This document shows, one piece after another, positions 1-48,744 of a DNA stretch of 64,000 nt (the stretch's first letter is position 1; every line of letters begins with the position of its first letter). Below the pieces are notes generated by a model that made no database searches, was not told the origin of the DNA, and was given only the letters and a program-made list of their open reading frames with translations. The translations under genes were made by a program, and so were the position numbers. The DNA is from Dictyostelium discoideum (lineage: Eukaryota). Location: positions 3,538,380 to 3,602,379 of the forward strand of contig CM000155.2 in the NCBI GenBank assembly GCA_000004695.1, written 5' to 3'.

Positions 1-3000
1 TTATCAATTTCACCAATCCAACTTGATATAGTATCATCATCAAAACAATTCAATGGATTTGTTGACCAAGATGTTTCTTTAAAACCATTACGATAATCTT
101 GAATTTGTTTATCACCATCATGAGCAGTCTTTATAATTTTCATTAAATCTTTAATTAATTGTTTTTCTTGTTTTTTATCAATACTACCATCATGATGATT
201 ATGATTATTATTTGTATTATATTCAGCTGAATTGGAATTTGATAAAAGTGTAATAATTTGTTGATAAACTATACCTCTTTCTAATTCAGATAATGCAAAT
301 AGTACTGATTTTCTATTCCAATATTCTATTACACCAAATCTATCAACTTTTGTTTCTGGTAATAATAATAAAAGCTTATAGATGATTTGATAACGTTTTA
401 AACGATGATTTTTTAATTCTGGGAAATGTTTTTCAATTTCACCATCTAAAGAAAGGTCACGAAGTAAATTATTCTTTGATAATGATAGATAAAGTTTTTT
501 CATTTCAATATCAGTGAAACCTGTAATCTTTGAGGTATTTTCAATTTCTAAAGGATTTGAAAGTTTATCTTTTAAAATGTTAACAGAATCAATTAAAACT
601 TGAGAACCAAATGATTTCATAATTTGATGGGCCCAATGATAGATAACATCTACGGAATTATTGTGAATTGTTTTATTAGTGCCTTCAATTTGATCAACAA
701 TCCATTCTCTACCTTGTGGAGTTGTCAAACGTGGTATATGGGATTGTGCAACTACAATAACTATTTTTTCATTTGGAAACTTTAAAGATTTTATAAATCT
801 TTCTGGTATTGAACCAATGATTGAAATTTTACCTTTCTTTGAGAATAGCTGAGTGGTTTTATCAGAGGCACCACCTAATTTACCCAAGAAATATTCAGCG
901 AAATCAGTGTTTGCCATTTGTTCTTTTGTTAGATTCCAATGGAATAAACTATTTAAACAAAGTATACAAGCACCAGTTAATGCACTACTTGAACTAACAC
1001 CACCAGATATTGGTAACTTTAATAATCCATCACTTGAGAAATGAAGTAGAATTGATTGATCTTTTGATTTTAACTTTGTTAAATCATTTAAAACCGATTG
1101 TGGGTAACTTTCACATTTATGAATTAAATAAGCCAATAAACATTTGATATAACTATCCCAATGAATTTGAGACCAAAGTGGTTCTTTTGATTTTAAATCA
1201 TAAGATTGTTTCAATAGTTTAATGATATCATTATCTATTGAGATTTCAACAGTTGGGAATTGTTTACTATCTTGATTACTAATGATTACTTTTCCACCAT
1301 TACCACCATTGGATTTAATTAATTGACCAATACATAATATTTCATTCATTGAATTTGAATTTATAGTGAAACCACCTAATCCTAATAAATCACTATGTCC
1401 CATAAATACACGATCTCTACCATTTGAACAAACTACAACAACTCTTGAGAATGGATTAAATGAATGAGATTTAATTGATACATCTAATTGATTAATTAAA
1501 TTTTGTTTTCTTTCTTTTAATAATTTAAAATTATCAAAACTATTATTATCACCACTAAAACTTTGTTGATATTGTAATTGTGGTTGTAGTGGTGGTTGTT
1601 GATTATATCTATCCTTTAATAAATCAATTGAAATTAAATTTTTAATATCATTAATTGTTAAATGAGAATTTCTTTGAACTTGATACCACCAATTAATAGA
1701 GATTGGAGTTGTTGGAGTTGAATGATTAAATTGATTAGTTTCTTGATCAAAATGTAGTTTTTCAGCCATAATTAAACTACCTGGTCTAGCATTTGCTTCT
1801 AAGATAAAAGGTTGATATTGCTGATTAACTTGATCATATGTTAAAATCATATCAATACCAATCAATGGTAAATCAATTTCTTCAAGAATAGTTTGAGCGA
1901 TTTCACACCAAAGTAACCAATCTCTTTTTTTAATTGGTATTGGTAAATCATTTAAAATTGATTGAACCAATACCCATTTTGAATTTCTAACACCAGGGGA
2001 AATGATTAATTCATCAACAGTACCAGCTTTTACAATTGAAAGTGTAGTTTCATTGCCAATACATGCATTCAATCTAAAGATTAATCTTTTTTGATCAGAT
2101 TTTGTTCTAACAGAATCAATAACTTGTGAAATTAAATATTCATCACCATTTAAATGATCTTGAGTATCGATTTCATCAATTAATTCTAAAACTCTTGTCA
2201 CCAATTTCTTTGATGAATTTGGAGATTTAAAATATTCAACACCATTCGATTCGGTTGTATTTGATCTTGGTTGTAAAATTAAACCTCTTTCAATTTGATT
2301 TGAATTTGAATTTGTATTTAAATCTAATAATAACAATTGTGGTGACTGTTTTTCAATTGATAATAGTATATCTCTTTCATTTAATAAATTCAAAGTTAAA
2401 TTTAATATAGCAGTTGGTGGTGTTGATTTTAATTCACCATTTAAAAACCATTTTGATAATTGTGATTTTAACCAATACTTATCATCACAACGTTCTTTAC
2501 TCTTTTCAAATTCATTCATAACCAATACATCATGTGATTGTAATTGTTTTGATAATTGTCTATGTTGTGATAATTCTTGATCTTGATAATCACCATTTAA
2601 TAATTCTAAAATAAAACAACTTGAAAGTTTTAATTTTAATCCAAATAATAATGGTAAATTAAATTCATAAATTATTTCGTTATCATTATCATTATCATTA
2701 TCGTTATCGTTATCATCATCATCATTTGGAATAATTAATAATTGACATCTTTTAATAAATGCTGATGATGATTCATTATCAAATTCAATCCAATCTTTAT
2801 GACAACCAATTACATTTAATTTAAATTTCTCTTGATATTTATAAATTGTTGTTATATTTTGTTGAAAAGATTGAGTGAATGGATAATAATGATGATTCAT
2901 TAATGTAGTTTTACCAACAACCACTGAAAATGTATTATTACCACCTAATAATGAATCTGTTAATTTCTTTATAAGTTTACTTTGTTCTGAACCTGGTGGT

Positions 3001-3184
3001 ACCATCATAACTGGTGGTGTTAATTCAACACTTATCAATGAATCATAATATCTTTCACTAATTCTTGTTAAATATTCATTCATTTCTTTTTCTTTATCAA
3101 TGAATTCTCCAAATGAATATGGATTTAAAGATAAATATTCTTTACATTTTTCAATACATTTTTCAATAAATTCTTTTGGGTCAT
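1..3184 (-). CDS. 3' exon of the giant gene, runs off the left window edge; ATP-grasp-like and GHMP-kinase-like modules
   Basis: The minus-strand frame (codon high coordinate = 2 mod 3) is open from the left edge (…DDDTISSWIGEID at 2-41) up to 3184. No minus-strand ORF is listed in the track, which fits a frame that runs off the edge. The translation contains an ATP-grasp-like motif (…GIDMILTYDQVNQQYQPFILEANARPGSL…) and a GHMP-kinase motif-II-like P-loop (PISGGVSSSSALTGAC, about 998-1040), followed by KLGGASDK. It joins the upstream exon in frame through an AG acceptor at 3185-3186 (ttatttag|atgaccc). Confidence 0.6.
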
Positions 3185-3266
3185 CTAAATAATAAATAAT
3201 TTTTTTTTTCAATATTAATATTTTATTATTTATTTATATTATTATTTTTTAAAAAAAATTAATTAC
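3185..3266 (-). other. 82-nt intron of the giant gene (GTAATT…TTTAG)
   Basis: On the minus strand the donor is aat g|gtaattaa at 3266-3265. The intron is AT-rich and the acceptor is ttatttag| ending at 3185. Splicing replaces the apparent GN-stop with …N-D-D-P-K-E-F-I-E-K-C… and keeps both long frames open (phase 1; 9181-nt upstream exon = 3n+1). Confidence 0.6.
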
Positions 3267-3373
3267 CATTAAAAACAACTTTAAGATCTAAATTTGAATT
3301 TTTTAAATTATCTGTTAAATTCTTTGAAATATTATTATTATTATTATTTATAGATTTAAATTGTTTTAATTTA

Positions 3374-3408
<35 letters not shown>

Positions 3409-4493
3409 ATTATTATTATTATTAAAATTATTTATATTTTTAATATAATCAAATAATTGTTGTGGTATAGTTGTTAAGAATTGTTTACCAATAGTTAAAA
3501 AGTTTGATAATACAATACGATCATTTTGACCAATTTTAGACCAATCAATTGATTTACTACCATTAATTGGATTAATGATTGTATGTAATTCGATTTCTCT
3601 CTTCCAAGAGTTTGTCCATAAACCGACGCCAACATTAGGTTCAAGATGCCAAAATTTAATTGATTTAACTTCACCTTGAAATTCTTTACCTGTCTTTAAA
3701 TCTTTTAAAAGATAAATTGAACCACCATTATTATTATCAATTGATTTTTCATTTTCATCATTAATATCTAAAGTTGTTGGAGGTATAGTTATATCAATTA
3801 ATCTACAAGATTCAACAATTTCACCAGTTTCTTTATTTTTCCAAACTGGTTCAGGTATGAAATCTAACATTAAATAACGTGGCCACCAAATTGGAGTACC
3901 TAAAGCATCAAATTCTTTAATGGAAGGGAATCTTTCATGATAAGATTTGAATGAATGTTTATAGAGTTCAATTTGTTGATTCCAATAGATAGGACCAAAT
4001 TTAGAGATATCAGACATAACATTTCTACCAGCTTCTTCTAAACCATTTAAAAATTGTTGTCTTAATGATGATTTAATTAATTGAGGATTTAAAATTTCTA
4101 ATGAACCCTGTCTACCAACATTTGTTGCAATTTGTAAACTATTTAATGAAATTGGATGTGAAGTTTGCCAATTTAATGGATCATCTAAACAAAGTTGTTG
4201 ATTATCATTATCACTATCCTTGTTGTTTTGATGATTTGGTTTTGCACATTTTGAACTTGAAAGAATTAAACGAACTGAACCATAAATTGAATCCTTTGGG
4301 AATCTATTCAATTCAACTGCTATACCATAATCATTAATTTGTCTTTCAATCATTCTTTTAATTGATCTATGTGACATCCAAAATAATGGTGATGCAATGA
4401 TTGCACGTTGAATTACAACATTTTGAGATTTTGAAATATGTAATATAAATTCACATGCATTATTAATTGATTTACTACATAATTTTATACCAA

Positions 4494-4532
<39 letters not shown>

Positions 4533-7500
4533 CACTATTAATATTATTATAATCATCTTGATCGTCATTATCTTGTTGTAATAAACAATCAAATCTTGAT
4601 AAATTTCTAGCACCAGATTCTGCAGCACCTTTAACTATTATAATTGGATATTGTTTAATGAATGGTAATAATCTTGTTTCAATCTTTTTCATTAATTCTT
4701 GGTGAGTACCTTGATTTTGAGTAGTTTCAATTTGTAACCAATCAATTTCTTGTGGTAAATTAACTTTATGTGGATTTGAATTTGAATTAAATATTAATGG
4801 ATATAATGATTTATTATAGGTCATTTCATAAAGAAAAGGTGATTTATCAGTGGTTGGATAACCAGCATTTGAAATTTGTGATTCTAATCTATGATGATGT
4901 AATGTTACAATACTACCAATTACAATTGGATGAATGAATCTTGATGCTACCAATACACCTTTACCAACAATGATAACCTTTTCATTAATTTCTTTTTCAA
5001 TTCTTTCATTAATTTGTTGAGTTGATAATTTTGAATAATTTGATAGATAATATTTATATTGATTTAAATTAATCCAATAAAATGCATCATTAATTGTTAA
5101 AACTGATTTATCTGTATCACCACCACCATTTCCACCACCACCATCAGGTAATGAAATAAAATTACCATCTCTTGTAATAAACAAATTATCAGATAAAGTT
5201 GGACCTTCAGTCATTGAACTTGCATAATGTGTCCTTCCAATTGGTGATAAGAAACAATGATTAACTTTTTTTGAACAATTTAAAGTTTCCTCTAAATATG
5301 GATCGATGAAATCTTTGAATACTCTTGGTAATTGGAAACCATCATTCTTTATGAAAACAATCTCTCTAAGTTGATTATAAGATCTCCAAAGTAATTCATA
5401 TTTTGGTGGATTATTTTCATAATCATCTTTACCAACTGATGAACCAATTGCTTGAGTAATAATTGTATCTGATTCAATATTTGTATCACCTAATAATAAA
5501 TCAATTACTTTTTGATCATCATTACCCCCACTACCACCACCACCACCACCACCACCACCACTAGTATTATTTTCACCAACAACAATATCATTATATTTTA
5601 AAGAATTAATAATTGATGATTTATTAATTATTAAAGATCTAATGAATGGATAAAGATATTTATGTGATTTCCAATAGAGTTGATATTGTTGTTCACGATG
5701 TGATGATAACATAATACCGACTTGATCGAAATGACGATTGAATAATGGATAACGTTTGGGATCCATACTCCATGGAGTGAATTCTGAATAATGATCATCT
5801 ATTGTTTTTGCAAAGAATTCAGCCAATGATCTAATTAATGGTTGATCAGATTCTAGATCACCACTTTCTAATGATAAATAAATTGAACATTTCTCTAATA
5901 ATAATAAAGTACTAATCAATTCTGTAATGATTGAAACTATTATTTGATGATCATTTTGATTCATTGATTTATTTGAAATTTCATATAATGGTGTAATTAA
6001 ACCAAATGTTTCATAAGTACCAATTAATTGATCCCAAATCTTTAAATCAATTTCATTACCATTAATACATAATCTATCAAATAATGATAATAAATTCTCT
6101 TTTTCTTTTTTATCAATTTCTTGTTGATTTATATCTTGACTCTTTGAATTTGAATAAATTATATTTACAATTGATTCTAATGATAAAATTGATAATTTAA
6201 ATATTTTACCAATAATAATATTAATATCTTGAATACTTATTGTTGTTGTTGTTGTAGTGGTGGTTGTTGTTGTTGAAATATTACTTAATTTTAAAATATT
6301 TTGATGAATTTCATTTAAATGAATTTTCTTTACATTATCAATAGTTAAATCAATTGATGATTTTAAAGGTGAAATGATTGAATTGAAACCAATTGATCTT
6401 GATTTCATAATTTGATTTTTCTTTGATTGAATTAAAAGTTCTTTTCTTCTAGTTACACCAGATTCAACATGATCTTCACTTGCTTTAACACTAAACATTT
6501 TACCCTTTCTATCTTTAAATTGAGCTTTACTTGGTGCTAATTGTTGTGATAAATCTTTAAATATTAAATCATTCAATTGTTGATCACCAATGAAATTGGT
6601 TGTTTTCATTTCATTTTGATTTTCATTTTCATTTGTTGATAAAAGATTATTAATTTTCTCATAAGATGATTGAATTAATTTTAATATTCTATTTTGATAT
6701 TGAATGGTTGTACCATTTAATAATAAATAACCACCAATTGATAACCAATGTAATGGTGATAACATTTCAATTGAAGGATTATCTAATAACTCTTGTAAAT
6801 GTTCTCTAATTATAAAATCTCTTTTCTTTGATCTATTTGCTAATAATACACGTTGTTCATATTGAATTAATAAATCAATTTCAGTTTCTAAACTTGATAT
6901 AATTAAACCTTCATTTGAATATTGTAGTTGTTGTTGTTGTTTTTGAGTATGATCATTATTAAATTGATTTAATTTTTTACATTGTTTACCAAATAATTTA
7001 AAATTAAAATCATTAAGTAATGATAATAATTTTTGATTATCATTTTCATTATAAATTGATTGGAAATAATTGAAAGCTATTATTGAACGATTTTCTAATC
7101 TTAAAACTTCTTGACGTAAATCTGTACCTAGAATTGGTTGATATTGATCTTTACCAAAACCAAATGCTTTATAGATTGATCTTCTACCATTGGTATGACG
7201 TTGTTCCCAATCGGTAATTCTATTACCATTTTGATCTATTGCTAAACAAGCAGCATACCAAAGCATGATATCACGTTCAAACCAACATCTATGACGACCT
7301 TGACTAACTTGATCATGAATTGCCAATGAACTATTAGGTCTACCAATCAACATTAGATCACGAATTGTTGAAGGATTTAAAGAAAGTAATTGTGGATGAG
7401 TGATAGAGAATACAACTATATCTTGACCTTGTAAATCCTTTAAGAATTGATTACCTGGACCTCTTAATTTTAACATTAATGGATGAATTTTACCACCAAT

Positions 7501-10500
7501 TTCTTTCTTTATCGCATTACATTTCTCTTTTGAATAGGTTGTTGATAATGGTACCCATTCATCAATGAATTGACGATGTAGTTGTGCATTGGCTCTCATT
7601 TGATCCATTGAAATTCCATAACGTTTTAAGATTTCAGCAGCTTCATTTGCATCATCCTCTAATAGGGATAAACTTTCAGATGAGAAATTTAAAAGATCTG
7701 AACTATCGACACCTGGTACACTTGTGATAGTAATATCACCAACGGTTGAATGTGGAGGAAATCTTTCAATTAATTTATTTACAATCTCTTGATGTTCACG
7801 ATTATTAGTTTCATCAAAATCCAATACACCATTACCAATGAATTGTTGTGCTAAATATTTTCTAATTGCTATATCTTGATGATGTTTTGAATTTGGTTTG
7901 AAACCATTCCATGTTAATCTTGCAACCAATTGACCCTCTTCATCCAATGACATTGAAACCTCCTCCATATGACCTGATAAAATTAAGAAAGCTCTCATTA
8001 CCCAAGCAAAACGTACATCTGGTGGTGGTTTTTCATTATCATCACCTTTATAAACTCCAAACATATGTATACGTAATTCAGTTTCTTTTGGTAAATTCTT
8101 TACTAATGGATTTAATTTAATTGCTTCTTTTGCACTCTCTGGTATTTCAATTGTCATTGGAAAAACTACTGATCTATTAACTTGTTCACCACCTAATGTT
8201 ACTTTTTTCTCTGCCCAATTACTCCAAACTGTACTATGACATGATGAAGTTAATGTTGATAAATTTGATGACGATGATAATGATGATGGAATATTATTAA
8301 TATTAATACCACTACTACCACCACCACCTCTTCTCCAACCATTAATTAATGGTGAAGGTATACCAATTGTACCAAGAATTTGACACATTTTTGAAACATG
8401 TAAACAAACAATACCACCAGTAACTTGAATATATTGTTTCATATATTTTGAAAAATTATTTGAATGAGTTGAACCACAAAATTTATTTAATAAACTATTT
8501 GAATCATTTGGATCAGGATTTGTAAATTGATTTGCAGCCCAATTTTCCCATTCACCAATTGAAGGGAATTGCCATTGTTTATTTGAGATTTCAATCATCA
8601 TTTGAATGATTTGTTGATGAAGATGTGATGGTATACCAATCATTGAAAGTTTTCTTGAATCTTGATGAGTTACAACAAACAATTTGAATAACAAATCTTT
8701 TGGAATACAATAGCCAGCTGTTGGTCCAGCGGAAAAGGATTCGTTTTCTTTACCCAATGCAATTGAAAGACCACCACGTTGATTGAATTGATATGATAAA
8801 TCTTCTATATCCCCAACTGATAAACGTTCGACAAACAATGCTTGTACATTTCTAACTGATCTAATCAATGCAGTATTTTGATTTTCACTAACTTTTAAAT
8901 TCTCTGCAGTAGTGATAGTACGAATTATTGGATTATAATTAATTAAAGAATAGAAACGATAAGCATGTTTTGCACAAAGTGGATCAGTTACACCAAGAAA
9001 TTGAGGCCAAGTTTCAACTGATTTTCTTTCATCTTTACCAAGGTTAACTCTTGATGGACCATAAATGAAATGATAACGTTTTCTCATACCAGTTGGTCTA
9101 ATTTCACCACCATTTTCACCGTCACTACCTCCACCACCACCACCACCAATTACAGCACCACAACTAAAGGCAAACAATGGATTATTCAATTGATTTAATA
9201 AACCATTCTCAGATATTACTGATCTTCTTGCTGTTGTTAATGATAATACTGAATGATTTCTATAATATTTCTCTAAACGTTTTAATATAAATAACTCTGG
9301 TTTCTTTTTATCAATAATCTCTAATGCTCTATATCTTGCTTCCCATTGAATAAAATATTTTAATTCATTCCTATATGGTTGTTTTGATTTAATAATAATT
9401 GAAATTTCTTCTTTTGATAAATTTATAATATTACCACTACTACCACTACTACCACTACCAACACCATTTGGTGATAGAAAATCTTTTTCATTTTTATTTT
9501 GTTGATAAATTGTTTCAATACCTAAATCTTGAAATTCTTTATAATATTTTGAATTATTTAAAATTTCTAAAACAGTTTTTGGTTCAGATTTAAGTCTTTC
9601 TTCTAAATTAAAGTTTATAGAATTTTCAGATGATGATGATAATGAATCATCAATTTTTTCTAATTCAAATAAAATTAATAATAATGAAACTTGTTTTTGA
9701 ATTATTAAATGATCAGAAACAATTGAAGAGATTGCACGTTGATGAGATATTTTCAAATGATTTTGACGTTGTTCAACTATTGGTTGATAATTAAATTCAT
9801 TGATAACTTTACAACCAACTAAATAGAGATCATTTTGATATTGATTTAATTTCTTTTCAACCAATTGTGGTAGACCATTATAATGTTCAATGATATTATT
9901 TAAACACATTTCTTCCTCTAGTACAGCTTGAATAAAACTTTCAACCAAACCTGGTGCCTCGGTAGTTAATAAATGAAAACCTGGTAAATTTCTTTGCTTC
10001 TTTAATGAATAATATTGCAATTGTGATAATTTGATTGGATTGTTATCTTTTAATGATGATAAATTGAATTTCTTTGATTTTTCAATTATTTCCAATTCTT
10101 TTGATTGAATTAATTGTTTTAATGATTCAATACGTGTTATGAATTTAGATTGTTTCCAATTTTCAAAGATGTTTGATTCAACTTGTTCATAAAGATTGTT
10201 CTCTTGATATTCTTGTTCTAATTGGCATGCCAATTTAATGATATCATCTTTTTGATTGATTAATAGCTTTCTGTAGATTTGTTCAAATTCAAAGATTCCC
10301 AAATTGTCTTGATAGAGTTTAAATGATTGTTCCAATAGAGTTGTTGAATGTTTAACTAATAACTCCCTTGCCAATGATAAATGTTCAGTTAACATTGTGA
10401 TTTTAATATTCTTTGACCAAGGATCAGCCAAAGATCTTATAGTTTGTTCAAGACCTTCTTGATCGACTTCAAAAACCGTTTCACTTTTACCATCGTCAGT

Positions 10501-11895
10501 GATATGAGTTCTTTCATAGATGAATAAAGGTACTGCTTCAATTAGGTCTGTAGAATGTTCAACCCAACAATTTGAAGGAGACATATGAATATTTTCACCA
10601 CCAATTCTAATTAACTTTTGAAGTGATTCCTCTTGTTCTGGTTTTGGTTCAAGATCATTTGTTCTAAATCTTTCAGAACCTGATAAACTTGGACGTTGTA
10701 ATAGTACTGAATAACCAGTTGATTCCTTTCTAGCAGATAGTATCTCTTGTTCCAATAATTGAACATCTTTCCAAACTTTACCATAACCTCTAGCGAATAA
10801 ATCATCAACAATTCTATAAACCATTTGGTAATAGTAATAATAATGTTGTTGTTGTTGATTTGATTGTTGATTACTATGTGATGAAATTAATAATGATCTA
10901 GTTGAACCTTCACCATGAAAATTTATAAATTTTGAATAATGATCATCAATAATTTGATAACATTTACCATAAACAATAGTAATTGTTTCTTTTAATTGAA
11001 TGATTGCACCTTGAATTTGTGTGATTGAAATTACTTTTTTTGAAGAAATACTTTGAAATCTACCACTTGTTGCTAATAAATGTTTTAATGTTTCTGATAA
11101 TTTTAATTTTAATTCATTCATACTACTATTATTACTATTATTATTATTATTAATTTGTTGTTGTTGATCAAATTGTTTTAAAAAGTAATTTAAAGATATT
11201 AAATTTTTAATTTGAAAAATTAAAGTTTTAATTGATTGAGAAACTTTTATCATTGAAGAAGCCGCGAATAGAGTAGCTTGATTCGAGAATGCTCTTGATT
11301 CTCTACCACAAACTATTATCTTATCCCAATTATTTGGAAAACCTGGTGAATTTATTGAATCACGAATTTCATTTGCTAATTGAATTGAATTCCTTTCTTC
11401 AACTGATGAATTAAATCTTTTAATAACTTGATAAGTTGATTCTCTTCTTTCTGCAATATCTTCAATTAATAATGATCTCTTTAATGATTGTCTATCATAA
11501 CAATAATCAATCTTTAATGATTTTAAATACCAAGATACTCTTGAATCACGTTTATTTATAACATTTTCAATTAATTGATTAATTAATTTTTCATTATCAT
11601 CATTATTATTATTATCACTGTTATTATTATTTAAAAGTAACCATTCTTCTAATTCAATTGTATTTAATGTTTGAGAAATTTTTAATTTTTCAAATAATTC
11701 AATTGATTCTTGATTAATTGTTTTAATTGATTCAATATAATCGATGAATAAATTATTTGAATCTAATAATCCATTTGAAATTTGTAATGCTTTTATTAAA
11801 CAAAGGTAATCTTGTTGAGTCATTGATAAAACATAACTTGTTAATTTATGTAAAACAATTCTATGAATTATATTCTTTGGTTTAATTTCAACATC

Positions 11896-11970
<75 letters not shown>

Positions 11971-12447
11971 TGAAATTTCATTTGTAATTATTAACCAATA
12001 TAAAATTGAAACACTAAATAATATTGAAATTTGATATTCAATCACTTGTGAACTACTACCATCTTCTTTACATTTATTTATAAATAATTTTAATAAATCA
12101 TAATTTGTTATTAAATTATTTTCATTATTAATTTCATCAAAACTATTATTATTATTATTATTGGTAAAAGTAAATGATGATAAATAACCATGATTTTCAT
12201 TAAAATTAATTGTTAAATTATTTAAATGATTATATTTATTAAAAATTGTTGGATAATTATAATTTAAAAAGTTTATTGATTTTAATAATGCTTTGGTTAA
12301 TTGATGATTTTTATTTGATTCTTCCAAGATGTAATCAAAACTATTACTATTATGAATTGAATTAAAATCAATATCAGTTAAACATGTTGAATCTGATGAT
12401 TTTGTTAATTTAAATGGCGTTGAATTGGTATCAATGCTTAATTTCAA
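3267..12447 (-). CDS. main exon of the giant multidomain gene (3060 codons); true start codon unresolved
   Basis: This is the 3062-aa ORF from the track. Its reported M at 12447 is TTG (plus caa). The same frame stays open 150 nt further upstream with no ATG, so an upstream micro-exon is likely. Long poly-N and poly-G tracts are present. An internal segment resembles nucleotide-sugar (UDP-glucose/GDP-mannose) dehydrogenases: CGAVIGGGG…, …SAGPTAGYCIPKD… (compare GGSCFPKD), and …RLTWNGFKPNS… (compare LAFKPNTDD). Confidence 0.65.
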
Positions 12448-13281
12448 TTTAGTTTCACCATACGTTCTTTTGGTTATCTCAATACAATTTGATTTTTTAT
12501 TATCTTCATTTTGAACTATTAAATTATTTGAATAATCAACTATTCCAATAATACCAATTGATTGATTATAATAATATAAATCTTTTTCCTTATTATTTTA
12601 TTTTATTATATTAGTAAATAATTTTAAAAATGAATAATAATAAATTTTTACATATAAAAAACATTAAAGCTGACACCAGTGGTGTGACTGTGTCAGAAAA
12701 AAAAAAAATTTTAAAAAGTTCGCAACTCGCACAAAAAAAAAATAAAAAGAAATAACATTCACACACAAAAAAAAAGATCGGAGGAAACCATCTGCGAAAC
12801 TGTTTTTTATATGTACTTCTTTTTTAAGTAATCCTTGAAAAAATAGTAAAAAAAAAAATTTAAAAATGAAATAACACCTGTTTTTGAAATTTAAAAAAAA
12901 AAAACAAAAAACCATATAAAAACAGACCCAATTACTGCATTTTTCGAACAAATTTTTTTTTTGGTGAATTATAATTAAATCAACTATTCACAGAAAGGTC
13001 CAATAATAATAACTATTATTTAGTGAATCTTACATTCAAATCTAGGGATTTATAAATATTATTTGAATTTTCATTCTTGATCATCTTGGTTATTTATTTT
13101 TGTTTTTTTTAATTTTTTTTTATTTTTTTTTTTTATTTTTATTTTTTTTTTTATTTATTTTTTTTTTATTATCTAGAAGATAAAAAATTTAATATAATTA
13201 ATTTTATTTTTTTTAAAAATTTTATTTTTTTTTTTTAAATAAGATAGATAGAGAGAGAGAAAAAAAAAATATTTGTGAGAA

Positions 13282-13704: not shown

Positions 13705-13804
<100 letters not shown>

Positions 13805-21312: not shown

Positions 21313-22863
21313 ATGAATTATGAAGAAGAAATATTTTGGAAAGTTATAAAAAATAAATTATTATTTAAAATTATTATAAAATTTATAAATAATAAAGATT
21401 ATTCCATTAGTTATTTTCCAAAAAGTAATGAATTTCCACCCCAGCATTCAATTGAATGGTTAATATGTAATAATAAGAAATCAATATTAGAATATAAAAT
21501 TAAAAATCACCATTATTTAGCATTGGGTAAAAATCCAATTTATGGAAAATTTTATAAAATATTTTCAATTTTTTCAAATGATAAATATGATCCAATTTTA
21601 TATAGATCATTAATTTATATGTTTTCAGATTATTTCCATCCATTATCAAAAGATCTTCAAGATAGAATCAATGAAGCCATTGAATCAAATAATTTAAATG
21701 TTTTAAAAGTAATGTGTGATCCAAATGGTCAATGTAAACATCAACCAACTGTAAATGATTATATTCTTTCATTAAAGAATAATAAATTTGAAATTGCATT
21801 ATGGATTGGTGAAACATTTCCAGGTATTCACCATATTTTTGAATATAGTAAATTAAAGTCAACTCAATTATTTAAAACTCTATTTCAATTTATTGATAAT
21901 TATAAACATCGAAATGAAGTAGAATTTAATAGATTTACACTTTTTAAAATAATTAAAAATTTATTAAATAATTGTCAATTTAGTTATTCAGTTGAACAAG
22001 TTCATAATATGGAAATATTAAAACAAAATCTTTTCAATGTTTGCCCAATTAAAAATGGTTGGTCAATTGAAAATTTATTAAATTCTTGTGAATTAATTTT
22101 AAAATTTAATAATATTTTTATCAAATTAAAAGAAGAAAATGAAAATGAAAATGAAAATTTAGAAGATTTTGAACTTGAAAAACAACAAGAAGAAAAAGAA
22201 AAAAATGAAAAAAATGAACAAAAAGAAAAATTAAAAATCAAATTATTAAATATCAAATTTTCAAATTATCAAAAATCTTTATTATTAAATAATGAAATTA
22301 AGGAATTTTCTATTAAATTAAAAATTAGAAAATTATTAAAAATTTATTTATCTTCACTAGATACTATGATTTTAGATGCAATAATTTCAAATGAACCACT
22401 ATATAAGAGTTGGTATGCTATTTATGATAATAGTTTAGATGTTGGCAATAGTCAAGATGATGATGGTGTTGATTTCACTCCAAATGACCAAATTACTATA
22501 AAAAATGATAGTAATGAAAACTTTCATTGTAATTCACATTTAGAAGCATTAAAAAATGGTGATTTTTTATTATTAGAAAAATGGTTTAATGAAAATCAAG
22601 ATGAGATTCCACTTATTCAATTATTAAAAGATTTAAATACAATTTCAATTTTCTATAAAGAACCATTGTTAATCTTTTCAAATTGTAATGGAAATGATAG
22701 TGAAAGTAAAAGTAAAAGATTGGATTTTATAATTTATCTTTTATATGAATCGAATATTTTACAAGATCATTTATTAAATCCATGGTTATTATTTTGTTTG
22801 ATTTTAAAATTTAATGATTATGAATTAATTGAAATGGTTTTAATCATTTATCAGATGAATTAA
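21313..22863 (+). CDS. lineage-specific family protein, part 1 (N-terminal motif EEIFWKVIKNKLLFKIIIKFI)
   Basis: 516-aa ORF with an ATG start. No recognisable catalytic domain. The same N-terminal motif recurs in the degenerate copies at 55480-55626 and 55917-56051. Confidence 0.55.
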   Translation: MNYEEEIFWKVIKNKLLFKIIIKFINNKDYSISYFPKSNEFPPQHSIEWLICNNKKSILEYKIKNHHYLALGKNPIYGKFYKIFSIFSNDKYDPILYRSLIYMFSDYFHPLSKDLQDRINEAIESNNLNVLKVMCDPNGQCKHQPTVNDYILSLKNNKFEIALWIGETFPGIHHIFEYSKLKSTQLFKTLFQFIDNYKHRNEVEFNRFTLFKIIKNLLNNCQFSYSVEQVHNMEILKQNLFNVCPIKNGWSIENLLNSCELILKFNNIFIKLKEENENENENLEDFELEKQQEEKEKNEKNEQKEKLKIKLLNIKFSNYQKSLLLNNEIKEFSIKLKIRKLLKIYLSSLDTMILDAIISNEPLYKSWYAIYDNSLDVGNSQDDDGVDFTPNDQITIKNDSNENFHCNSHLEALKNGDFLLLEKWFNENQDEIPLIQLLKDLNTISIFYKEPLLIFSNCNGNDSESKSKRLDFIIYLLYESNILQDHLLNPWLLFCLILKFNDYELIEMVLIIYQMN

Positions 22864-23822
22864 TTAAAGAAGAAAAAAATTCAATTTTCAATCAATATAA
22901 AGATGAATATTTAGATCTTGGTAATTTGGTAAATAATGAAAATGCAATAAAATTAATTCACCCTTATTTCCCTTGGGGTTCAAATGAAATTGCTCAAAAT
23001 ACACCATACTGGAATTTCAAAGAATGGAGAAAAAATGGAAGAGTAGATTTATTTGAAGTTATTGAATCATTTGTTCCAAAAGATTTACGTATAGTTTATT
23101 CAACAAACACTGAAATTGGGTTCTATGGTAATGAATTATTATGTTTATTGAATTCACTTTCAAAACCTCATCTCTATGAAATTCCAACACCAAGAAAAAT
23201 TTTATTTAAAGTTGATGAAGAAACAACTACTGAAGATATTGGTTTTATAAAATTAATTATATTAGAAACTTCTGATCAATATGAATATTGTTTCACAAAC
23301 TTAAAGAAAGGAGGTTTTGAAATTATTGGAGAGAATTTTGTAGAATTTTTTGATTGGTTTTTTAGTAATAGACAAAATGATATTACCACCAATAAATTTG
23401 TTCATCCAAATAAAAAAACTTGGTTAATGACAATGAAATATATTTCTGGTGGTGAACATTTTAATGAATACTTTACAAATTTAAATTCAACTCAATTCTT
23501 TGAAAATGAAATAATTAAAAATCAAATTTTTGATTTGGTGGCAAAGTTTGGTGATATTCATTTTATTGATAAAATCATTAAGTACTATTTTAATGGTATC
23601 TTTCCATTAGTAGAGGTTGAAAATAATTCAATCACTGATTCTTTCTATAGATTAATTCTTTCAACAATATCAAATGGTCATTTAAAATTATTAGAATATT
23701 TTAATTTTAATTTTAAATCAACTTTTTTTAAATCATCATTATTTAATCAAATTAAATTAAATATTATTAATAATAATCAATTAGAATTCTCTCAATATAT
23801 TTTTAATTTAAAATTAAATTAA
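22833..23822 (+). CDS. part 2 of the same family gene, in the -1 frame relative to part 1 (possible frameshift, pseudogene or sequencing error)
   Basis: The second frame opens at 22833 and overlaps the end of frame 1 by 31 nt. The track's start at 22926 is TTG, not ATG. No canonical GT/AG pair can reconcile the two frames. Confidence 0.4.
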   Translation, partial: NGFNHLSDELIKEEKNSIFNQYKDEYLDLGNLVNNENAIKLIHPYFPWGSNEIAQNTPYWNFKEWRKNGRVDLFEVIESFVPKDLRIVYSTNTEIGFYGNELLCLLNSLSKPHLYEIPTPRKILFKVDEETTTEDIGFIKLIILETSDQYEYCFTNLKKGGFEIIGENFVEFFDWFFSNRQNDITTNKFVHPNKKTWLMTMKYISGGEHFNEYFTNLNSTQFFENEIIKNQIFDLVAKFGDIHFIDKIIKYYFNGIFPLVEVENNSITDSFYRLILSTISNGHLKLLEYFNFNFKSTFFKSSLFNQIKLNIINNNQLEFSQYIFNLKLN

Positions 23823-24022
23823 AAATAAAATAAAATAAAATAAAATAAAAATATAATAAAAATAAAAATAAAATAAAAATAAGATATAAATAAAATAAAA
23901 TAAAAATAAAAATAAGATTGTTTAAAAAAAAAAAAAAAAGAAACACAACAAATGTTAAATTAAATTTTTTACTTTTACCATATTAAAATTTCACATTTTT
24001 CGTGTTTAGGTGTCTGGTATCG

Positions 24023-24059
<37 letters not shown>

Positions 24060-24168
24060 AAATTAAAAAGATTTTTTGTAAATTGGGACTTTTTTTTTGA
24101 ATTGGTTTTTGTAAATTGGGACAAAAAAAAAAAAAAAAAAACGAACGGTCATTTTGTAAAAATTAAAA

Positions 24169-24247
24169 ATGAAAATTCAAACAACTATATTATTCATTTT
24201 TATTTATTGTTATTTTGTAAATGCAGACAATTTAGTTGCACTTGAAG
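24169..24247 (+). CDS. exon 1 (signal peptide) of a 3-exon secreted protein gene
   Basis: ATG at 24169. MKIQTTILFIFIYCYFVNADNLVALE is a classic signal peptide. The donor is gaag|gtaattaag at 24248. This exon is missing from the ORF track. Confidence 0.65.
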
Positions 24248-24336
24248 GTAATTAAGTTAATTTTAAATTAATTGAAAAAAAAAAAAAAAAAATTAACCAT
24301 GATTTTTTATTTTTTTATTTTTACTAAAAAAAACAG

Positions 24337-24587
24337 TTGATACAACATCAGTTTCAGTAAGAACTTTTCAATATAACGGGGCAGATGGGTCATCAATTTT
24401 CCCAGGTAAAAATTTAGTTAAAATAGCAGGAGCACAACCATTTAGAGTTTCGGCCTATGAAGAATCATATATAGTTTCAGCTATTAAAGGATGGGATTAT
24501 TATGTTATACTTGCAAATGGACAAGATACATTACTTTATGGAATTGATTTACAAACTGGTGAAATTTTTATTAATGGTTATTCACCA
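24337..24587 (+). CDS. exon 2 of the secreted protein gene
   Basis: The acceptor is aaaaaacag| at 24335-24336. The phase is consistent: 79 = 3n+1, then 251 = 2+3n. The donor is cca|gtatgt at 24588. It encodes …VDTTSVSVRTFQYNGADGSSIFPGKN…GYSP. Confidence 0.65.
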
Positions 24588-24673
24588 GTATGTTTTTTTT
24601 TTTTTAGTAAATAATTTTATTTTTAAAATTTATTATTTATTAATTTAAATTTATTTTTTATTTTATTTTTTAG

Positions 24674-25315
24674 AATAAACAAATTTTATATATTTATGGT
24701 TTAACATATGATTTAAAATCTAATCAATTAATAGCAGTTTCCTCAATGGAATATGAGGCAGGAGATCCATATTTTGATGTTGTTTTAGTTGACCCAAATA
24801 CAGGTGAAATTTCCCAAAATTTAACAATACAAAATTCATATCCAAATAATACATGGTATTCTGGTCTTTATACATCAAGTCAAAGTCAATCACAATTATA
24901 TATTTTATTCCAAAGTATGGATGAAAAAACCAATAATACAATTAGTGGCTTTACAACTATTAATACTATTGATGGTACATTTGTAAATAATGTTTGGATA
25001 AATTCAGATAATAATTTTATCTATAGTTTTGTATTTGATGAAACTAGTGGTATGATATTAGCAACAATGTCACAATATAATGGTAAAAATCTTGATTTTA
25101 TTTCAATCAATCCAACAAATGGTGATTATACAGTTATTAGTAGTGATCAAGTTTGTGCTGGCTCTGGTCCTGTTATTATTGATGGTGTTTTCTTAGCACC
25201 TGGTAAAGAACCTAAACCAAGTCATACAGTTTCTTTAGTTGATACTAATTCTGGTAAAATTATTAAAGAATATTTAGATATTTTTATTGATATTTCTTAT
25301 TTAAATTCTTATTAA
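24674..25315 (+). CDS. exon 3 of the secreted protein gene (about 330 aa total, function unknown)
   Basis: The acceptor is ttttttag| at 24672-24673. aat aaa caa… is in frame with the track ORF 24746-25315 (72 nt upstream of its ATG, a multiple of 3). Confidence 0.65.
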   Translation, partial: NKQILYIYGLTYDLKSNQLIAVSSMEYEAGDPYFDVVLVDPNTGEISQNLTIQNSYPNNTWYSGLYTSSQSQSQLYILFQSMDEKTNNTISGFTTINTIDGTFVNNVWINSDNNFIYSFVFDETSGMILATMSQYNGKNLDFISINPTNGDYTVISSDQVCAGSGPVIIDGVFLAPGKEPKPSHTVSLVDTNSGKIIKEYLDIFIDISYLNSY

Positions 25316-25385
25316 AAAAAAAAAAAAAAAAAATTAAATAAAATAAAAAAAAAAAATTAATTACAAAATAATAACAGTAGTTTAT

Positions 25386-26170
25386 TTATTCGCTAATATT
25401 ATCAAAACTACTACTATTTGAAGATTCAGAGTCAATGTCTGATTCAGATTCAGATTCAGATTGAGAAATAGCTTTTTTTAATCTTGAGGCTGGTTTCTTT
25501 TTACTTTGTTTTGGTTGAGGTTTCTTTGGAGGTTTTTTGGGAGTTATATCCATTCTATCTATATCACTAATTTCAGAAGATTGATCACTTTCTGATGATT
25601 GTTCACTTTCAGATGATTTTTTCTTTTGAACTGGTTGTCTTTTTCTTGATGGTACCATTGGTTTTGAGATTGGTTTTTTGGGTGTAATTATCATTCTATC
25701 TTCATCATCACCACTCTCTTCATCTTCCTCTTCACTACTTTCCTCACTTTCTTCTTCTTCACTACTTTGATATTTCTTTCTTGAAGGAGCTCTTTTTTTA
25801 GCAGGTGCTTTCTTTGAAGGTTTTAAAGGTGGTTTTTGAATTGATTGAGATGTAGTAGTAGTGGAAGAGGTACCACTACTATTACCATCTGTCTCTTGAA
25901 CTAATTGAACTGTTTCACCTAATGTTAATTGACTACGTGCAGTATTTATTTTTTTCTCAATTTCATCGACCAACTGTTTAATTTCAGAAGTTTTTGTAAG
26001 ATTTGGTTGTTTTTTTGTTTTACTAATTGATATCATTAAATTATTATAAATTTCATTATCATTTAATTTATCTTGATAAAGTTTAAAATGTTCTATTAAT
26101 TTCTTTAAACTTTTATCATTATAATTTAATAATTGTAAACAAAATGAAATATTTTGTGATTCACTAATAC
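25386..26170 (-). CDS. condensin complex subunit 1 (CND1/NCAPD2), C-terminal exon (basic/acidic tail)
   Basis: It is joined to the 1028-aa ORF by a 79-nt intron at 26171-26249, with a GTAAGT donor and a tttatttag acceptor. The phase-1 join gives …FKTSK-S-ISESQN…. The Lys/Ser/Glu-rich tail is typical for this subunit. Confidence 0.7.
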
Positions 26171-26249
26171 CTAAATAAAATAAATAAAATAAAATACAAT
26201 TAATTAATAATTTGATTTTTTTTTTTTTTTTTTTTTACACTAAACTTAC

Positions 26250-29200
26250 TTTTTGAAGTTTTAAATCTTTGTAATAATTTATCAATTAAAGTTTCAGATT
26301 GTTTATCTTTTTCAATAAAAGAGAATAAATATTTTAAAATATTTTTAATTGAATCTTTTGAAATATTATTTAAATTACTTGTAACGGTTGAAGCAGGAGT
26401 AATTTTACCAATGATATCAGGTAAAGAATTATAAAGGTTATTACCTTTTGAAGCTAAAGTTGAAAAGAATAACTTTGCAATATTTGAAATACGAATATCA
26501 GAATCTTCCAAACAAATTGCCATTTCGCTAATTTGACCTTTAACTTTAATCATATCATTTAAAATTAAATGAGTGAGAACCATTAAAGAATTTTTTCTAG
26601 CATCTGCATTTGGATCTCTTAATCTTGAATAAATTTTTGAAGTCCATGGTTCGACTAAATTTGGAAATCTAAAAGCTAAATCACCTAATCCAATGATAAT
26701 ATTTGATCTAATCACTTCAATTGATGACTTTTCCAAGAGAGTGAAAAGTAATTGAAGATTTGATTCACAAAAGTTTGAATCAACACACATAAATTTTGAT
26801 AAAGTTAAAACTGCACTTGTTTGTAATAATTGATTTGGGAATTGTTCATTTGAAAAGATTTCATTATAATTATAACAAATTGAAACAACCAATTGAGAAT
26901 ATTTTCCAATTAAATTATTTTCAGATAAAATATCAGATTCTGCTTGAATTTGAATTGCTTCAGATTCTGCTTCTGCTTCTGCTTGATCAGTACCTAATTC
27001 TTTTTCAATATCTGTTTTCTTTTTATTATTGTTATTATTATTTTTTGATTGTTTTGATTGTTCATATTGAATTCTTTTAATTTCAGATTGAATTTCTTCA
27101 ACATAAACCAATTGTTTAATTGCAATATGACCTAAAATAAATATTAATTTTGATAAACAATATTGATTAGTTTCACCATTTTCATCTAAAACTTGATCTG
27201 ATAATTTCTTTATAATTTCACTTGAAATTAAATCTGGTTGTTCAGCTAAAATATAAATTGTATTAATTACTTGTTCTGCAAACATAAACCATTTTGAATT
27301 TTTAATATCATTATCAATATTATCATTTGTTGTTGTTGTTGTTGTTGTTGTTGAACAAATATGATAAATTAAACGTTCAAATAATGATTGATTATTTTTA
27401 AAACGTGGTAAAATTTGATCAGTTTCTTTTAAACCTTTTGATCTTAATTTTTGAAGAGTTATACAAGTATAACGTGGTAAAAATTCATCATCTTGTTCTT
27501 CTAAACCAATTGAAACCAACAAATTAACTTTATCTTTAACAACGGAAGAATTATTATTTGAAATCATTGATAAGATAATTAAAGCTCCACGACTATCTTG
27601 TTTATTGAAATTTACAACCTTTCCAGAGAAAATATCCCAGAGTGCTTTTATTATATCTTGATCTATTAAATCTTTTTTAGTGAATTCAATCATTAATTCC
27701 TCTAAAGATGTAATTTCACCCAATGTTGCAGTTGTAGTTAAATCGATTAAATTCTTTGCAATATAATAACTTGATTTTAATGTTGATTTAACTTTTTCTC
27801 TTGTATCTTTAATTAATAGTTCATGAAATGATCTAATTGTACTCTCTTTAATTGATTGTTCTTTATTCCAAATTAATGCCAACATTTTAGTGATTGCTTC
27901 TTTTGATTTATCAATTTGATATTTATGTGCAACTTGAATGAAATGAACAGATTCTAAAATATCAGAAGGATTAACACTACCCATTAATTGACACATTGTA
28001 TCAATTGTACTGTTTATAATTTTTATAAATTTACAAGAACTATCTAAATATTTATTTAAATGCTCTAAATATAATGGTAATCTATGTGGTGAAAATTCTT
28101 TAATTCCTGAAAATGGTACTAACATTGATATTAAATCAAAAAATTGTTCTTTATTTAATTTAATATCTTCAAAAATTTGTTTTTCTGTAATTTCTTCTTC
28201 TTCTTCTTCTTCTTCTCCATCTTCCTCTTCTTTCTCTTTTTTCTCTTCTTCTTCTTTTTGTTGTTGTTGTTGTTGTTCAAATTCCATATTATCATCTGGT
28301 ACTTGTTGTGAATTTAATAAATCATCTTCATTATTATTATTATTATTATTTTTTAATTTTTTTGATTTTTTTAATAATTCTTTCTTTTTCTTTAAATTAT
28401 AAAATGATAATTTAATAAAAGAAGCTAATTTTTCTTTTTTATCTTTAAATAACAAAGTTGGTAAATGAGGTGAATATGGATTTGATTCTAAAATATCAGA
28501 TAATAAAAGAATTGCTCTTTTTCTAACCAAAGAATTTTTATCAGAAACACGTTCAATTGCAATCTTTGTTAATTGAATATAACTTTCTTTTGGTACCCAA
28601 TTATTATTTACCAATAATGATAAAGTTTTTAAAACACTACTTCTACAATAACCATTAATATCTCTACAACGTTCAAATAAAATATGTAATAATTCTGATT
28701 GATCTGATTCATTCTTTTTTTGATTTTCAACTTCTTCCTCTTCTTCTTGTTCAGATTTTTTATCTTTATTATTGCTTTCAACTTTATTTAAAGCTTTACC
28801 AATTAAAAAACCAATTGATTCAGTTACAGCATTACGCATTAAATATGATTCAGAATCTAAATGAGCCAATAATAAACTAACGAATGGTAAAACTATTTTT
28901 GGTAAACGATCAGTTAATTCTGATAAAAATTTTGCTAAATTTTTAAAACCACTTGTATCACGTTGTTCTTTTTGTTTACCAATTTCTCTAATAATATCTG
29001 AAATTAAAAATGTAGTTTGATTCTTTTGTTGTTGATTTGTTGATTGTGAATAAATATTTTGTTGTTGTTGTTGTTGCTGATGCTTTTGTTGTTGTTGTTG
29101 ATAATCATAAATAAATTCATAAAGGTCAGCACAATGTGAAGGCAAAGATTCATGATTATGTAAAAGATGAATAATTTTACTTGTGAAATTAAAGGAATGA

Positions 29201-29561
29201 TTATAACGTAAAATTAAAATTGATAAAACTTCAAAAATTAATTTCTTTACACCTTTACTACGTAAGTTTGCTGGTTGTTCAATCATTGCATAAATAATTT
29301 TTGAGAGTAAATTTATAAATTCTTCTTCTGGATAATCTAATCTCCAAAGTGTTGATAAATTTAATTCTAAACAATTTATAATTGATGTTAATATTGCTTC
29401 TTTTTGTTCTTCTTGTTCCCAAGTATCTAAAACTGAAGAATTTTTTTTTTTTGTTGATTTCTTTTTACTAGTTATTGATGCTGTTTCATTATTATTTTCT
29501 GATGTTGATTTTGATGATTCCTTTGTTGTTGATGATGAGTGTTGATATGATATATAATGTT
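26250..29561 (-). CDS. condensin complex subunit 1 (CND1/NCAPD2), main exon
   Basis: …IGLGDLAFRFPNLVEPWTSKIYSRLRDPNADARKNSLMVLTHLILNDMIKVKGQISEMAICLEDSDIRISNIAKLFFSTLASKGNNLYNSLPDIIGKI closely matches the conserved Cnd1 C-terminal domain of human NCAPD2. The frame stays open upstream of the track's M (29286) to an acceptor tttttttag| at 29562-29563 (…WRLDYPEEEFINLLSKIIYAMIEQPANL…). Confidence 0.8.
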
Positions 29562-29608
29562 CTAAAAAAATATATACATTTTTAATGAATTTCTATATAA
29601 TAAACATT

Positions 29609-29869
29609 TTAATTTAAAACTTTCATTATTTTGTGAATATTAATTTCTTCATCATCAATATCTTCATTGTTATCATTATCATTATCATTATCTTGTTGAC
29701 CCCTATTTTTATGATTTTTTATTTTATTTTGAAATTCTTTATTAATTGTTGATGTTAAATTGGTTATACCATATTTTAAAATTTTAATAATTTGATTCCT
29801 TTGATCTGCTGTTAATTTACTAATATTTAATAAATAAGAAAATAATAAATCAAAAAATTGAGTGATCAA
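29609..29869 (-). CDS. condensin subunit 1 N-terminal exon 2 (boundaries approximate)
   Basis: FDLLFSYLLNISKL…EINIHKIMKVLN aligns roughly with human FDTIYSILHHFRS…NAHLNALKMN. The track start is TTG, preceded by an atatag| acceptor at 29870. The 3' donor and the join to the main exon could not be made frame-consistent. Confidence 0.35.
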   Translation of the reverse strand: MITQFFDLLFSYLLNISKLTADQRNQIIKILKYGITNLTSTINKEFQNKIKNHKNRGQQDNDNDNDNNEDIDDEEINIHKIMKVLN

Positions 29870-30021
29870 CTATATCACTTGAATTTTTTTTAAATTTTTC
29901 ATAAATTACTATTTAAAAAAAAAAAATTTATTAATAAAAAACAAAATAAAATTAAATAAAGTAAAATAAAATAATTACAGTTTAAATTTGATAAAATTGT
30001 ATTTTCATTTTGTGAATTTAC

Positions 30022-30105
30022 ATCTATTATCTTTTTAATGGAATATTTATCACTTGATGATAGTGATATATCTTCAAAATGTATTGGTATTTGAAATTCT
30101 AACAT
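30022..30105 (-). CDS. condensin subunit 1 first exon (MLEFQIPIHFEDI…)
   Basis: ATG at 30105. MLEFQIPIHFEDISL resembles human MYEFHLPLSPEEL. A candidate donor gat|gtaaat would end the exon at 30022 and pair in phase 0 with the atatag| acceptor at 29870, giving a 152-nt intron. Confidence 0.4.
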
Positions 30106-31398: not shown

Positions 31399-31432
<34 letters not shown>

Positions 31433-48695: not shown

Positions 48696-48744
48696 ATTTT
48701 CAACATCATTCATTATCATTTGATCGTACTTAATTTTTTTTTGA

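Follow-up and report, generated by a model that had tools for sequence, protein, structure and literature searches.

The subject of this study is a 64,000-nucleotide stretch of the Dictyostelium discoideum genome (assembly GCA_000004695.1, contig CM000155.2, positions 3,538,380 to 3,602,379; this whole stretch is the window, and its first letter is position 1) and a giant gene on its minus strand. The guanine-plus-cytosine (GC) content of the window is 15-37%, and in the frame region of the gene it is about 22-27%. Two long minus-strand frames are present here: one with 3,112 open codons (12597..3262) and a second with 1,077 open codons (3233..3), which leaves the window at its edge. In such AT-rich DNA chance is not expected to give open frames so long. 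The program-made list of open reading frames (ORFs) contained the longer one only as a TTG-started version of 3,062 codons. Comparison of the sequence with related proteins and their gene models confirmed that the two frames belong to one predicted protein-coding gene of three exons, the coordinates of which are collected in Table 1.

Exons and ends of the gene

The frame of exon 1 ends with AAT GGT AAT TAA, where the stop TAA lies at 3261-3259. In an earlier, sequence-only reading of this DNA it was proposed that an 82-nucleotide intron joins the two frames into one gene of more than 4,100 codons, and both parts of this proposal have held. When the transcript is cut at AAT G/GTAATTAA (G at 3266) and rejoined after TTATTTAG/ (3185), the joined frames read ...VVFN/DDPKEF and are free of stops. 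By enumeration of all frame-restoring GT..AG pairs near the junction, the GT at 3266 was recognized as the sole usable frame-compatible donor and the AG at 3186-3185 as the nearest acceptor; acceptors further on would remove conserved residues.

The annotated orthologue of D. citrinum (P0027, 4,232 residues, 87% identical) reads LDLKVVFNDDPKEFIEKC at the junction, with the same VVFN/DDPKEF, and that of D. purpureum (P0026) reads ...KDNPEEFI... there. In the genomic locus of D. citrinum the donor and the acceptor of intron 2 are at identical positions and the flanking exons are nearly identical; the substitutions are for the most part intronic, and those directly behind the acceptor leave the amino acids unchanged (GAT GAC CCA versus GAC GAT CCA). 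The annotated dictyostelid orthologues are single proteins of 3,844-4,232 residues. Moreover, both sides of the junction were aligned within a single protein in seven homologues, and the junction region is one uninterrupted frame in the bacterial sequences P0003 (on a bacterial contig of 55% GC), P0015 and P0022 as well as in the metagenomic P0004, P0005 and P0006. Because the orthologue gene models and these seven junction-spanning homologues agree, we read the locus as one gene and not two.

The long frame is without Met for about 250 codons, and the same reading had suspected that the true ATG lies on an upstream micro-exon. This exon was located: ATG ATC AAG ... TTG AAT is followed by GTAAGA, and the acceptor AATAAG joins these 17 codons in phase to EKDLYYY.... 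The N-termini of the D. citrinum (MIKNENSNDIYKSLDLNEKDLYYY) and D. purpureum (MIKNEDNS...SLDLNEID) proteins both match exon 0, and an intron stands at this codon in D. citrinum too; the start micro-exon is therefore real. At the other end, the contig L001 from a public run (99%-identical genomic DNA, protein P0001) extends the frame by 152 residues to a TAA stop. The protein assembled from the window and this extension has 4,337 residues. The gene thus covers 1..13084 and extends beyond the left window edge, about 13.5 kilobases in total, which replaces the extent of 1-12447 given earlier. The encoded protein is soluble; convincing transmembrane segments were not found in it. Rfam detected no RNA gene in either intron or elsewhere in the gene.

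Intron 1 is much longer here than its D. citrinum counterpart at this codon, which has approximately 66 nucleotides, and the surplus has GC-richer patches. Intron 1 contains a 95-codon ORF (12664-12951), and the surplus has a hairpin at 12670-12696 with a perfect 7-base-pair stem (CTGACAC...GTGTCAG) that is unique in the window; nothing significant was found in Rfam for the surplus or the hairpin. An insertion or an intronic RNA could account for the extra sequence. Upstream of the gene start a long (ATT)n microsatellite (about 13715-13800, minus strand) lies in poly-A/T-rich promoter DNA.

The family, its core and its add-on

The homology search, made with the low-complexity runs removed, gave relatives at 40-54% identity, and the profile search which followed collected 46 relatives; exon 1 is homologous to P0002-P0051 along its length. 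The reference protein of D. discoideum was not among the sequences that the searches gave. Giant single-protein members occur in Dictyostelium citrinum, D. purpureum, Heterostelium, Polysphondylium and Acytostelium, one was found in Pelomyxa, and several are EukProt entries. There are also long bacterial forms of 4,000-4,760 residues, for example in Candidatus Omnitrophica, and a more distant bacterial clade of about 2,400-2,660 residues in Gemmatimonadetes, Latescibacterota and Armatimonadota. The annotated orthologues (D. citrinum ACTFIV_006895, D. purpureum DICPUDRAFT_47540, Heterostelium album PPL_02104, Polysphondylium violaceum CYY_001894, Acytostelium SAMD00019534_117090, Pelomyxa Pelo_14398 and Candidatus Omnitrophica NC910_03795) have the same architecture as the window protein and align with it collinearly; they carry the name 'hypothetical protein' or the name of one domain only. 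The identity to the window protein is 87% in D. citrinum and 55-57% in D. purpureum, and in the long bacterial forms it is 36-41% across the main core alignment.

Mapping of the family onto the window protein defined a universal core at residues ~355-3058, that is about 2,700 residues, in which an N-terminal region, a dehydrogenase-like module, a helical region and an ATP-grasp domain follow each other in this order. Bacteria and slime moulds share 25-40% identity across these ~2,700 residues, with invariant active-site-like residues. The add-on at residues ~3160-4337, with a second ATP-grasp module and a GHMP kinase, is confined to the dictyostelids and the long bacterial forms. A rough neighbour-joining tree, which is indicative only, placed the eukaryotic sequences in one group adjoining the long bacterial forms. 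In unidentified AT-rich metagenomic eukaryotes (L004 511-4809 and 4868-12847; P0007-P0014 with P0004-P0006) the orthologue is interrupted for about 58 nucleotides at ...LR / (I/V)H(M)FGVYKGDD; the interruption falls within the dehydrogenase-like module, away from the sites of the Dictyostelium introns, and probably represents a short intron.

Full-text searches on four orthologue locus tags gave no paper, and those on the locus tags and the domain combination gave no functional study of the family. The gene model itself is not new, as orthologues of sister species are already in the databases as 'hypothetical protein'. The sequence-only reading had called the architecture non-standard: it is indeed unusual, but it is not unique to this organism and belongs to a conserved family of such entries. 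Known enzyme folds are combined here in an arrangement for which we found no description.

Neither the proteins of the short bacterial clade nor P0002, a complete transcript ORF, extend beyond the conserved portion of exon 1; intron 2 therefore lies in the linker between the core and the add-on. These shared endings show that the two halves are separable in some relatives, and together with the existence of shorter proteins with only ATP-grasp and GHMP domains (some of them maybe fragments) they could speak for two separate genes, one stopping at the TAA after 3,062/3,112 codons and an independent ATP-grasp and GHMP kinase gene downstream. Against this, the exon 2 frame has no ATG for about 50 codons and yet D. 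citrinum and D. purpureum both conserve the sequence DDPKEFIEKC... in this part; merely 82 nucleotides of very low GC content separate the frames, with GT..AG ends positionally conserved in D. citrinum; and the dictyostelid orthologues are annotated as single proteins and the bacterial homologues are single ORFs. We regard two genes as most improbable. Retention of intron 2 might also yield a core-only isoform ending ...VVFNGN, similar in its architecture to the short bacterial forms, and splicing would then be required for the full-length protein. The stop stands two codons past the donor, an arrangement kept in D. citrinum, and the intron is exactly at the boundary of the core and the add-on; however, chance stops are to be expected in an intron of 3.7% GC, and the proposal is pure inference, so we judge it improbable too, if less extremely. 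A single spliced gene is the reading that we follow below.

Modules of the protein

The conserved N-terminal region of ~640 residues is kept in every family member, the short bacterial clade included, with its motifs GRESRAF.NQA, LLQRPS..GSERF and HLLTTEAPGL invariant. It gave neither a Pfam match nor a PDB profile match. Both this region and the ATP-grasp domain of exon 1 had been missed in the sequence-only reading.

The second part of the core was compared with the UDP-glucose, UDP-ManNAc and GDP-mannose 6-dehydrogenases (PF00984, TIGR03026). The earlier suggestion of a dehydrogenase-like module was correct with regard to homology and mistaken with regard to its motifs. CGAVIGGGG was rejected as a Rossmann dinucleotide-binding motif: it is part of a D. 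discoideum-specific poly-Gly insertion, CGAVIGGGGGGG, absent from 30 of 30 aligned homologues, and D. citrinum has only 'GG' there. TWNGFKPNS was likewise rejected as the GLxFK motif, in favour of MFGVYKGDD, which may match the C-terminal domain of the dehydrogenases (PF03720 pattern GLxFK..TDD.R.S). When only the window protein was searched, Pfam and NCBIfam returned no match for the dehydrogenase or the ATP-grasp modules except for a below-cutoff one to TIGR02291; of the searches that the reading had recommended on the conceptual translation, GHMP_kinases_N came out above the cutoff, but neither of the other two did. The single-sequence PDB search was also empty for the dehydrogenase-like region, and the first family profile, built from 14 close sequences, still missed the match. 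It surfaced when the distant bacterial clade had joined the profile: 21 PDB sequences were then matched, all of them UDP-sugar dehydrogenases (best 4a7p, 1.3e-5; 3vtf, 5.2e-5), with E..K...N and GGxCxPKD aligned. In the distant clade PF00984 is above the gathering cutoff (32.5 versus 25.4 bits), as in P0033 and P0041, and TIGR03026 is matched with an E-value of 1.2e-13; the score of P0033 (50.6 bits) is far below the whole-protein cutoff of this model (189.8 bits). The family shows no variation at the positions that correspond to Lys, Asn, Cys and Asp in UDP-glucose dehydrogenases (K, N, C, K, D). On these comparisons the module is homologous to the UDP-sugar 6-dehydrogenases, in their central domain and apparently also in their C-terminal one. 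It shares with them the central domain, the Cys of GGxCxPKD and the upstream Lys and Asn, and differs from them in its large insertions and in being embedded in a protein of 4,337 residues; the protein as a whole is not filed here as a dehydrogenase.

For residues 2190-3064, which comprise the helical region and ATP-grasp module 1, the single-sequence PDB search found nothing in the ATP-grasp region. The AlphaFold2 (AF2) model of this segment is confident, with a predicted local distance difference test (pLDDT) score of 83.5 and a predicted template modelling (pTM) score of 0.86. A Foldseek search of this model against PDB gave D-Ala-D-Ala ligase as the best match (1.1e-4, probability 1.00), followed by glutathione synthetase, DcsG, synapsin, PsnB, RimK and TTL; ATP-grasp enzymes dominate the matches. 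VKGAAESGARN and LEPNVGxGLW are invariant in the family, as are K, E, S, G, R and E-P-N. According to the model, module 1 is a predicted ATP-grasp domain with its Lys...E-x-N signature intact.

Module 2 had been read as ATP-grasp from its C-terminal motif, and the profile matches, weak and consistent, all fall on this motif (TILEEIDLPLIGIDMILTYD...FILEANARPG). The family profile A9 matched the ATP-grasp domain of cyanophycin synthetase in PDB (3e-4), with RimK and ITPK1 just below the threshold; TIGR02291 matched module 2 of the window protein at 0.043, and ATPgrasp_YheCD, ATPgrasp_ST and RimK were matched in homologues at 2e-4 to 1e-3, below their cutoffs. The E-x-N-x-R-P-G of this module is invariant, and it is likely an ATP-grasp domain by its sequence pattern. 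An exhaustive search in 1.84 billion representative proteins gave only 19 relatives of module 2, nearly all of them family members or fragments; the second Pfam domain in the new ones is usually a GHMP kinase (four of nine), with PGM/PMM instead in one case. The fold of module 1 is like that of the ATP-grasp ligases (D-Ala-D-Ala ligase, glutathione synthetase, RimK, the G domain of cyanophycin synthetase, the sugar-associated ATPgrasp_ST), with a target-normalised template modelling score of 0.56. Module 1 shares with them the invariant K, the Gly/Ser-rich loop and E-x-N, and module 2 the ...GID......LE.NARPG signature; the sequence identity to solved ATP-grasp structures is 5-9%, and module 1 has large insertions. 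An origin of the two modules by internal duplication was considered and rejected, since hhalign gave an E-value of 0.19 and no detectable relationship.

The GHMP kinase module, suspected from motif II, was supported. Pfam GHMP_kinases_N (PF00288) is matched in the window protein with 26.1 bits (cutoff 22.3) and was found in 11 of 13 family members, and the profile matches in PDB include GalNAc kinase (3e-6) and galactokinase 1pie (3e-7); in the single-sequence PDB search the C-terminal part gave only weak GHMP kinase matches (best E-value 0.013). The GR..F.GH.D..G.GG signature, motif II (PxGGxSSS), GGxxD and motif III (AAGLGG) are conserved in the 13 members; for motif III, which falls outside the window, AAGLGGTVCV was taken from L001/P0001. 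From what is known of galactokinases we take these residues to have their usual catalytic and other roles, GGxxD presumably marking the position of the catalytic Asp. TIGR00131 (gal_kin) is matched in P0016 with 2e-10; the window protein scores 24.7 bits with this model, far below the equivalog cutoff of 226.65 bits. With the galactokinase/GalNAc kinase branch the module has in common the N-terminal GR.....GH.D..G motif, motif II, GGxxD and motif III; it differs in its long insertions and in its fusion to the C-terminus of a giant protein. Judged by these motifs and scores, the kinase is a divergent relative, not a galactokinase orthologue.

Table 1. Positions in the window of the gene, its predicted modules and the neighbouring features (nt, nucleotides)
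Feature	Position	Strand	Details
Exon 0	13084..13034	minus	ATG + 16 codons (MIKNENSNNIYKSLDLN), phase 0; direct sequence reading and N-terminus match to orthologues
Intron 1	13033..12589	minus	445 nt, GTAAGA...AATAAG
Exon 1	12588..3267	minus	9,322 nt, residues 18-3124 and first base of codon 3125; no stop
Intron 2	3266..3185	minus	82 nt, GTAATT...TTATTTAG, 3.7% GC
Exon 2	3184..1	minus	residues 3125-4185 within the window; 152 further residues outside, then TAA stop
Conserved N-terminal region	9670..11577	minus	residues ~355-990
UDP-sugar-6-dehydrogenase-like module	7030..9375	minus	residues 1089-1870
AENLKVSEN	8881-8907	minus	dehydrogenase-like motif
GYCIPKD	8695-8715	minus	dehydrogenase-like motif; codon of invariant Cys 8707-8709
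MFGVYKGDD	8038-8064	minus	dehydrogenase-like motif
CGAVIGGGGGGG	9127..9162	minus	lineage-specific poly-Gly insertion
Helical region and ATP-grasp module 1	3448..6072	minus	residues 2190-3064; ATP-grasp part roughly 3448-5325
IIIVKGAAESGARN	4603-4644	minus	ATP-grasp 1 motif
HLEPNVGVGLW	3616-3648	minus	ATP-grasp 1 motif (E-x-N)
ATP-grasp module 2	1593..2645 (approximate)	minus	likely ATP-grasp
LILQPRSNTTES	2247-2282	minus	ATP-grasp 2 motif
GIDMILTYD	1833-1859	minus	ATP-grasp 2 motif
FILEANARPGS	1776-1808	minus	ATP-grasp 2 motif
Galactokinase-like GHMP kinase	1..1445	minus	C-terminal end outside the window
GRDRVFMGHSDLLGLGG	1371-1421	minus	kinase motif
PISGGVSSSSALTGAC	966-1013	minus	kinase motif II
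LGGASDKT	855-878	minus	kinase motif
Condensin Cnd1-domain protein	26200-29286	minus
tRNA-Phe gene	35727-35800	plus
RVT_1 ORF	36085-39684	plus	1,199 codons; RVT_1 1e-33
NADPH-cytochrome P450 reductase-like flavoprotein	42606-44501	minus	Flavodoxin_1, FAD_binding_1, NAD_binding_1
tRNA-Arg (CCT) gene	48621-48696	minus
IucA/IucC ORF	50918-53137	minus	739 codons; IucA/IucC (1e-50) and FhuF-like domains

Elsewhere in the window, the RVT_1 ORF begins about 285 base pairs downstream of a transfer RNA (tRNA) gene, tRNA-Phe, in a locality with 32-37% GC and strong strand skew. It looks like a TRE-type Dictyostelium element, a non-long-terminal-repeat retrotransposon targeted to tRNA genes; the window also has another tRNA gene, that of tRNA-Arg. 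The IucA/IucC ORF, of the siderophore-synthetase type, is a gene with bacterial character within the genome of an amoeba. The condensin Cnd1-domain protein and the cytochrome P450 reductase-like flavoprotein are ordinary eukaryotic neighbours.

Possible function of the multi-module protein

We lean towards the view that the locus is one three-exon gene for a multi-module protein of about 4,337 residues, a member of a conserved uncharacterised family, and that this protein catalyses several steps in sugar chemistry. In the proposed scheme the GHMP module would phosphorylate a sugar at the anomeric carbon and give a sugar-1-phosphate, the dehydrogenase-like module would hold a nucleotide-sugar or uronate and perhaps oxidise it, and the ATP-grasp modules would spend ATP on converting a carboxylate to an acyl-phosphate which could then be joined to an amine. 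In the capsule of Campylobacter jejuni an ATP-grasp amidoligase, the TupA-like C-terminal domain of Cj1438, amidates the C6 carboxylate of glucuronate (PMC11800379). By analogy, the ATP-grasp step might parallel this glucuronate amidation, and the role of the protein may be one of sugar activation and amide addition.

Relatives and their neighbours offer further domains of this kind. P0059 has PGM/PMM domains in place of the kinase, and some members end in Hexapep, Inositol_P (inositol-monophosphatase-like) or ROK domains. P0003 is followed by a protein of 1,260 residues with a hydrophobic, signal-peptide-like N-terminus and weak hexapeptide-repeat matches. In Omnitrophica the gene of P0016 (L008) is flanked by two giant ORFs (1-9885 and 22497-32483), one of more than 3,294 residues with SIS and DUF4954, the other of more than 3,329 residues with Hexapep, GHMP_kinases_N and PGM_PMM_I; the locus looks like a cluster of giant genes with sugar-phosphate enzyme domains. 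Because the domains of the relatives and neighbours all belong to sugar-phosphate or sugar-nucleotide enzyme classes, a sugar theme is suggested for the family.

Several observations weigh against this view. The splice sites were derived from sequence logic and from the gene models of orthologues, themselves possibly computational. The ~640 conserved N-terminal residues and the helical region 1870-2440 are without an assignment, and about 1,300 residues have no enzymatic assignment. In the dehydrogenase-like module no N-terminal, GxGxxG-containing NAD-binding half could be recognised, and no member matched PF03721, the family of this domain; of the 413 profile positions of TIGR03026 only 135-276 were aligned, and the alignment by PDB profile is limited to the central domain. 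As we read the alignment, PSRVNLG in the family stands in place of the PEFLREG of UDP-glucose dehydrogenases, and two glutamates are apparently lost. The AF2 model of this module has helices where the strands β1-β4 are expected, with low to moderate confidence in this part and pLDDT below 50 around the catalytic-type Cys, and a Foldseek search with it gave no significant E-values; because of this low confidence at the Cys and the non-significant matches, the module may bind its ligand but not oxidise it. In module 2, Q-P-R/S stands in place of the usual canonical Lys-Pro, and none of its matches attains a curated cutoff. Finally, the Dictyostelium protein contains no nucleotidyltransferase domain, and the pathway as written is therefore incomplete.

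On these grounds the gene model could be right and the protein still be mainly a scaffold of enzyme-derived domains, in which the dehydrogenase-like module has lost its NAD domain and serves binding or regulation, with no fused pathway. The missing Rossmann half, the altered PSRVNLG, the long unassigned regions and the poorly modelled Cys motif would all fit such a protein. Residues of catalytic type, however, are invariant in all four modules over a very wide phylogenetic span (K/N/C/K/D in the dehydrogenase-like module, K...E-x-N and E-x-N-x-R-P-G in the ATP-grasp modules, GR, D and motif II/III in the kinase), which is the pattern of active sites and not of a scaffold; we consider such a scaffold unlikely, and continue to prefer a multi-step enzyme.

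It should be emphasized that each of the module classes is well understood, and that their combination, together with the domains of the relatives (PGM/PMM, SIS, hexapeptide, a second GHMP kinase), suggests sugar activation and ATP-dependent amide ligation. For the organism this means that two ORFs are to be read as one gene, with a first exon of 17 codons and a 3' end outside the window, and that its protein can be approached by biochemistry and by a knockout in Dictyostelium. The dehydrogenase-like module, in which no NAD domain is detectable, is of interest alone, as it may be an enzyme fold in new use. More speculatively, and with rather more doubt than confidence on our side, the family might be an undescribed machine, built on a core of ~2,700 residues and spread over Amoebozoa and at least four bacterial phyla, which makes a sugar acid in amidated or peptidyl form, as a metabolite or as a polymer, and the amoebozoan copy of which may come from one ancient bacterial transfer.

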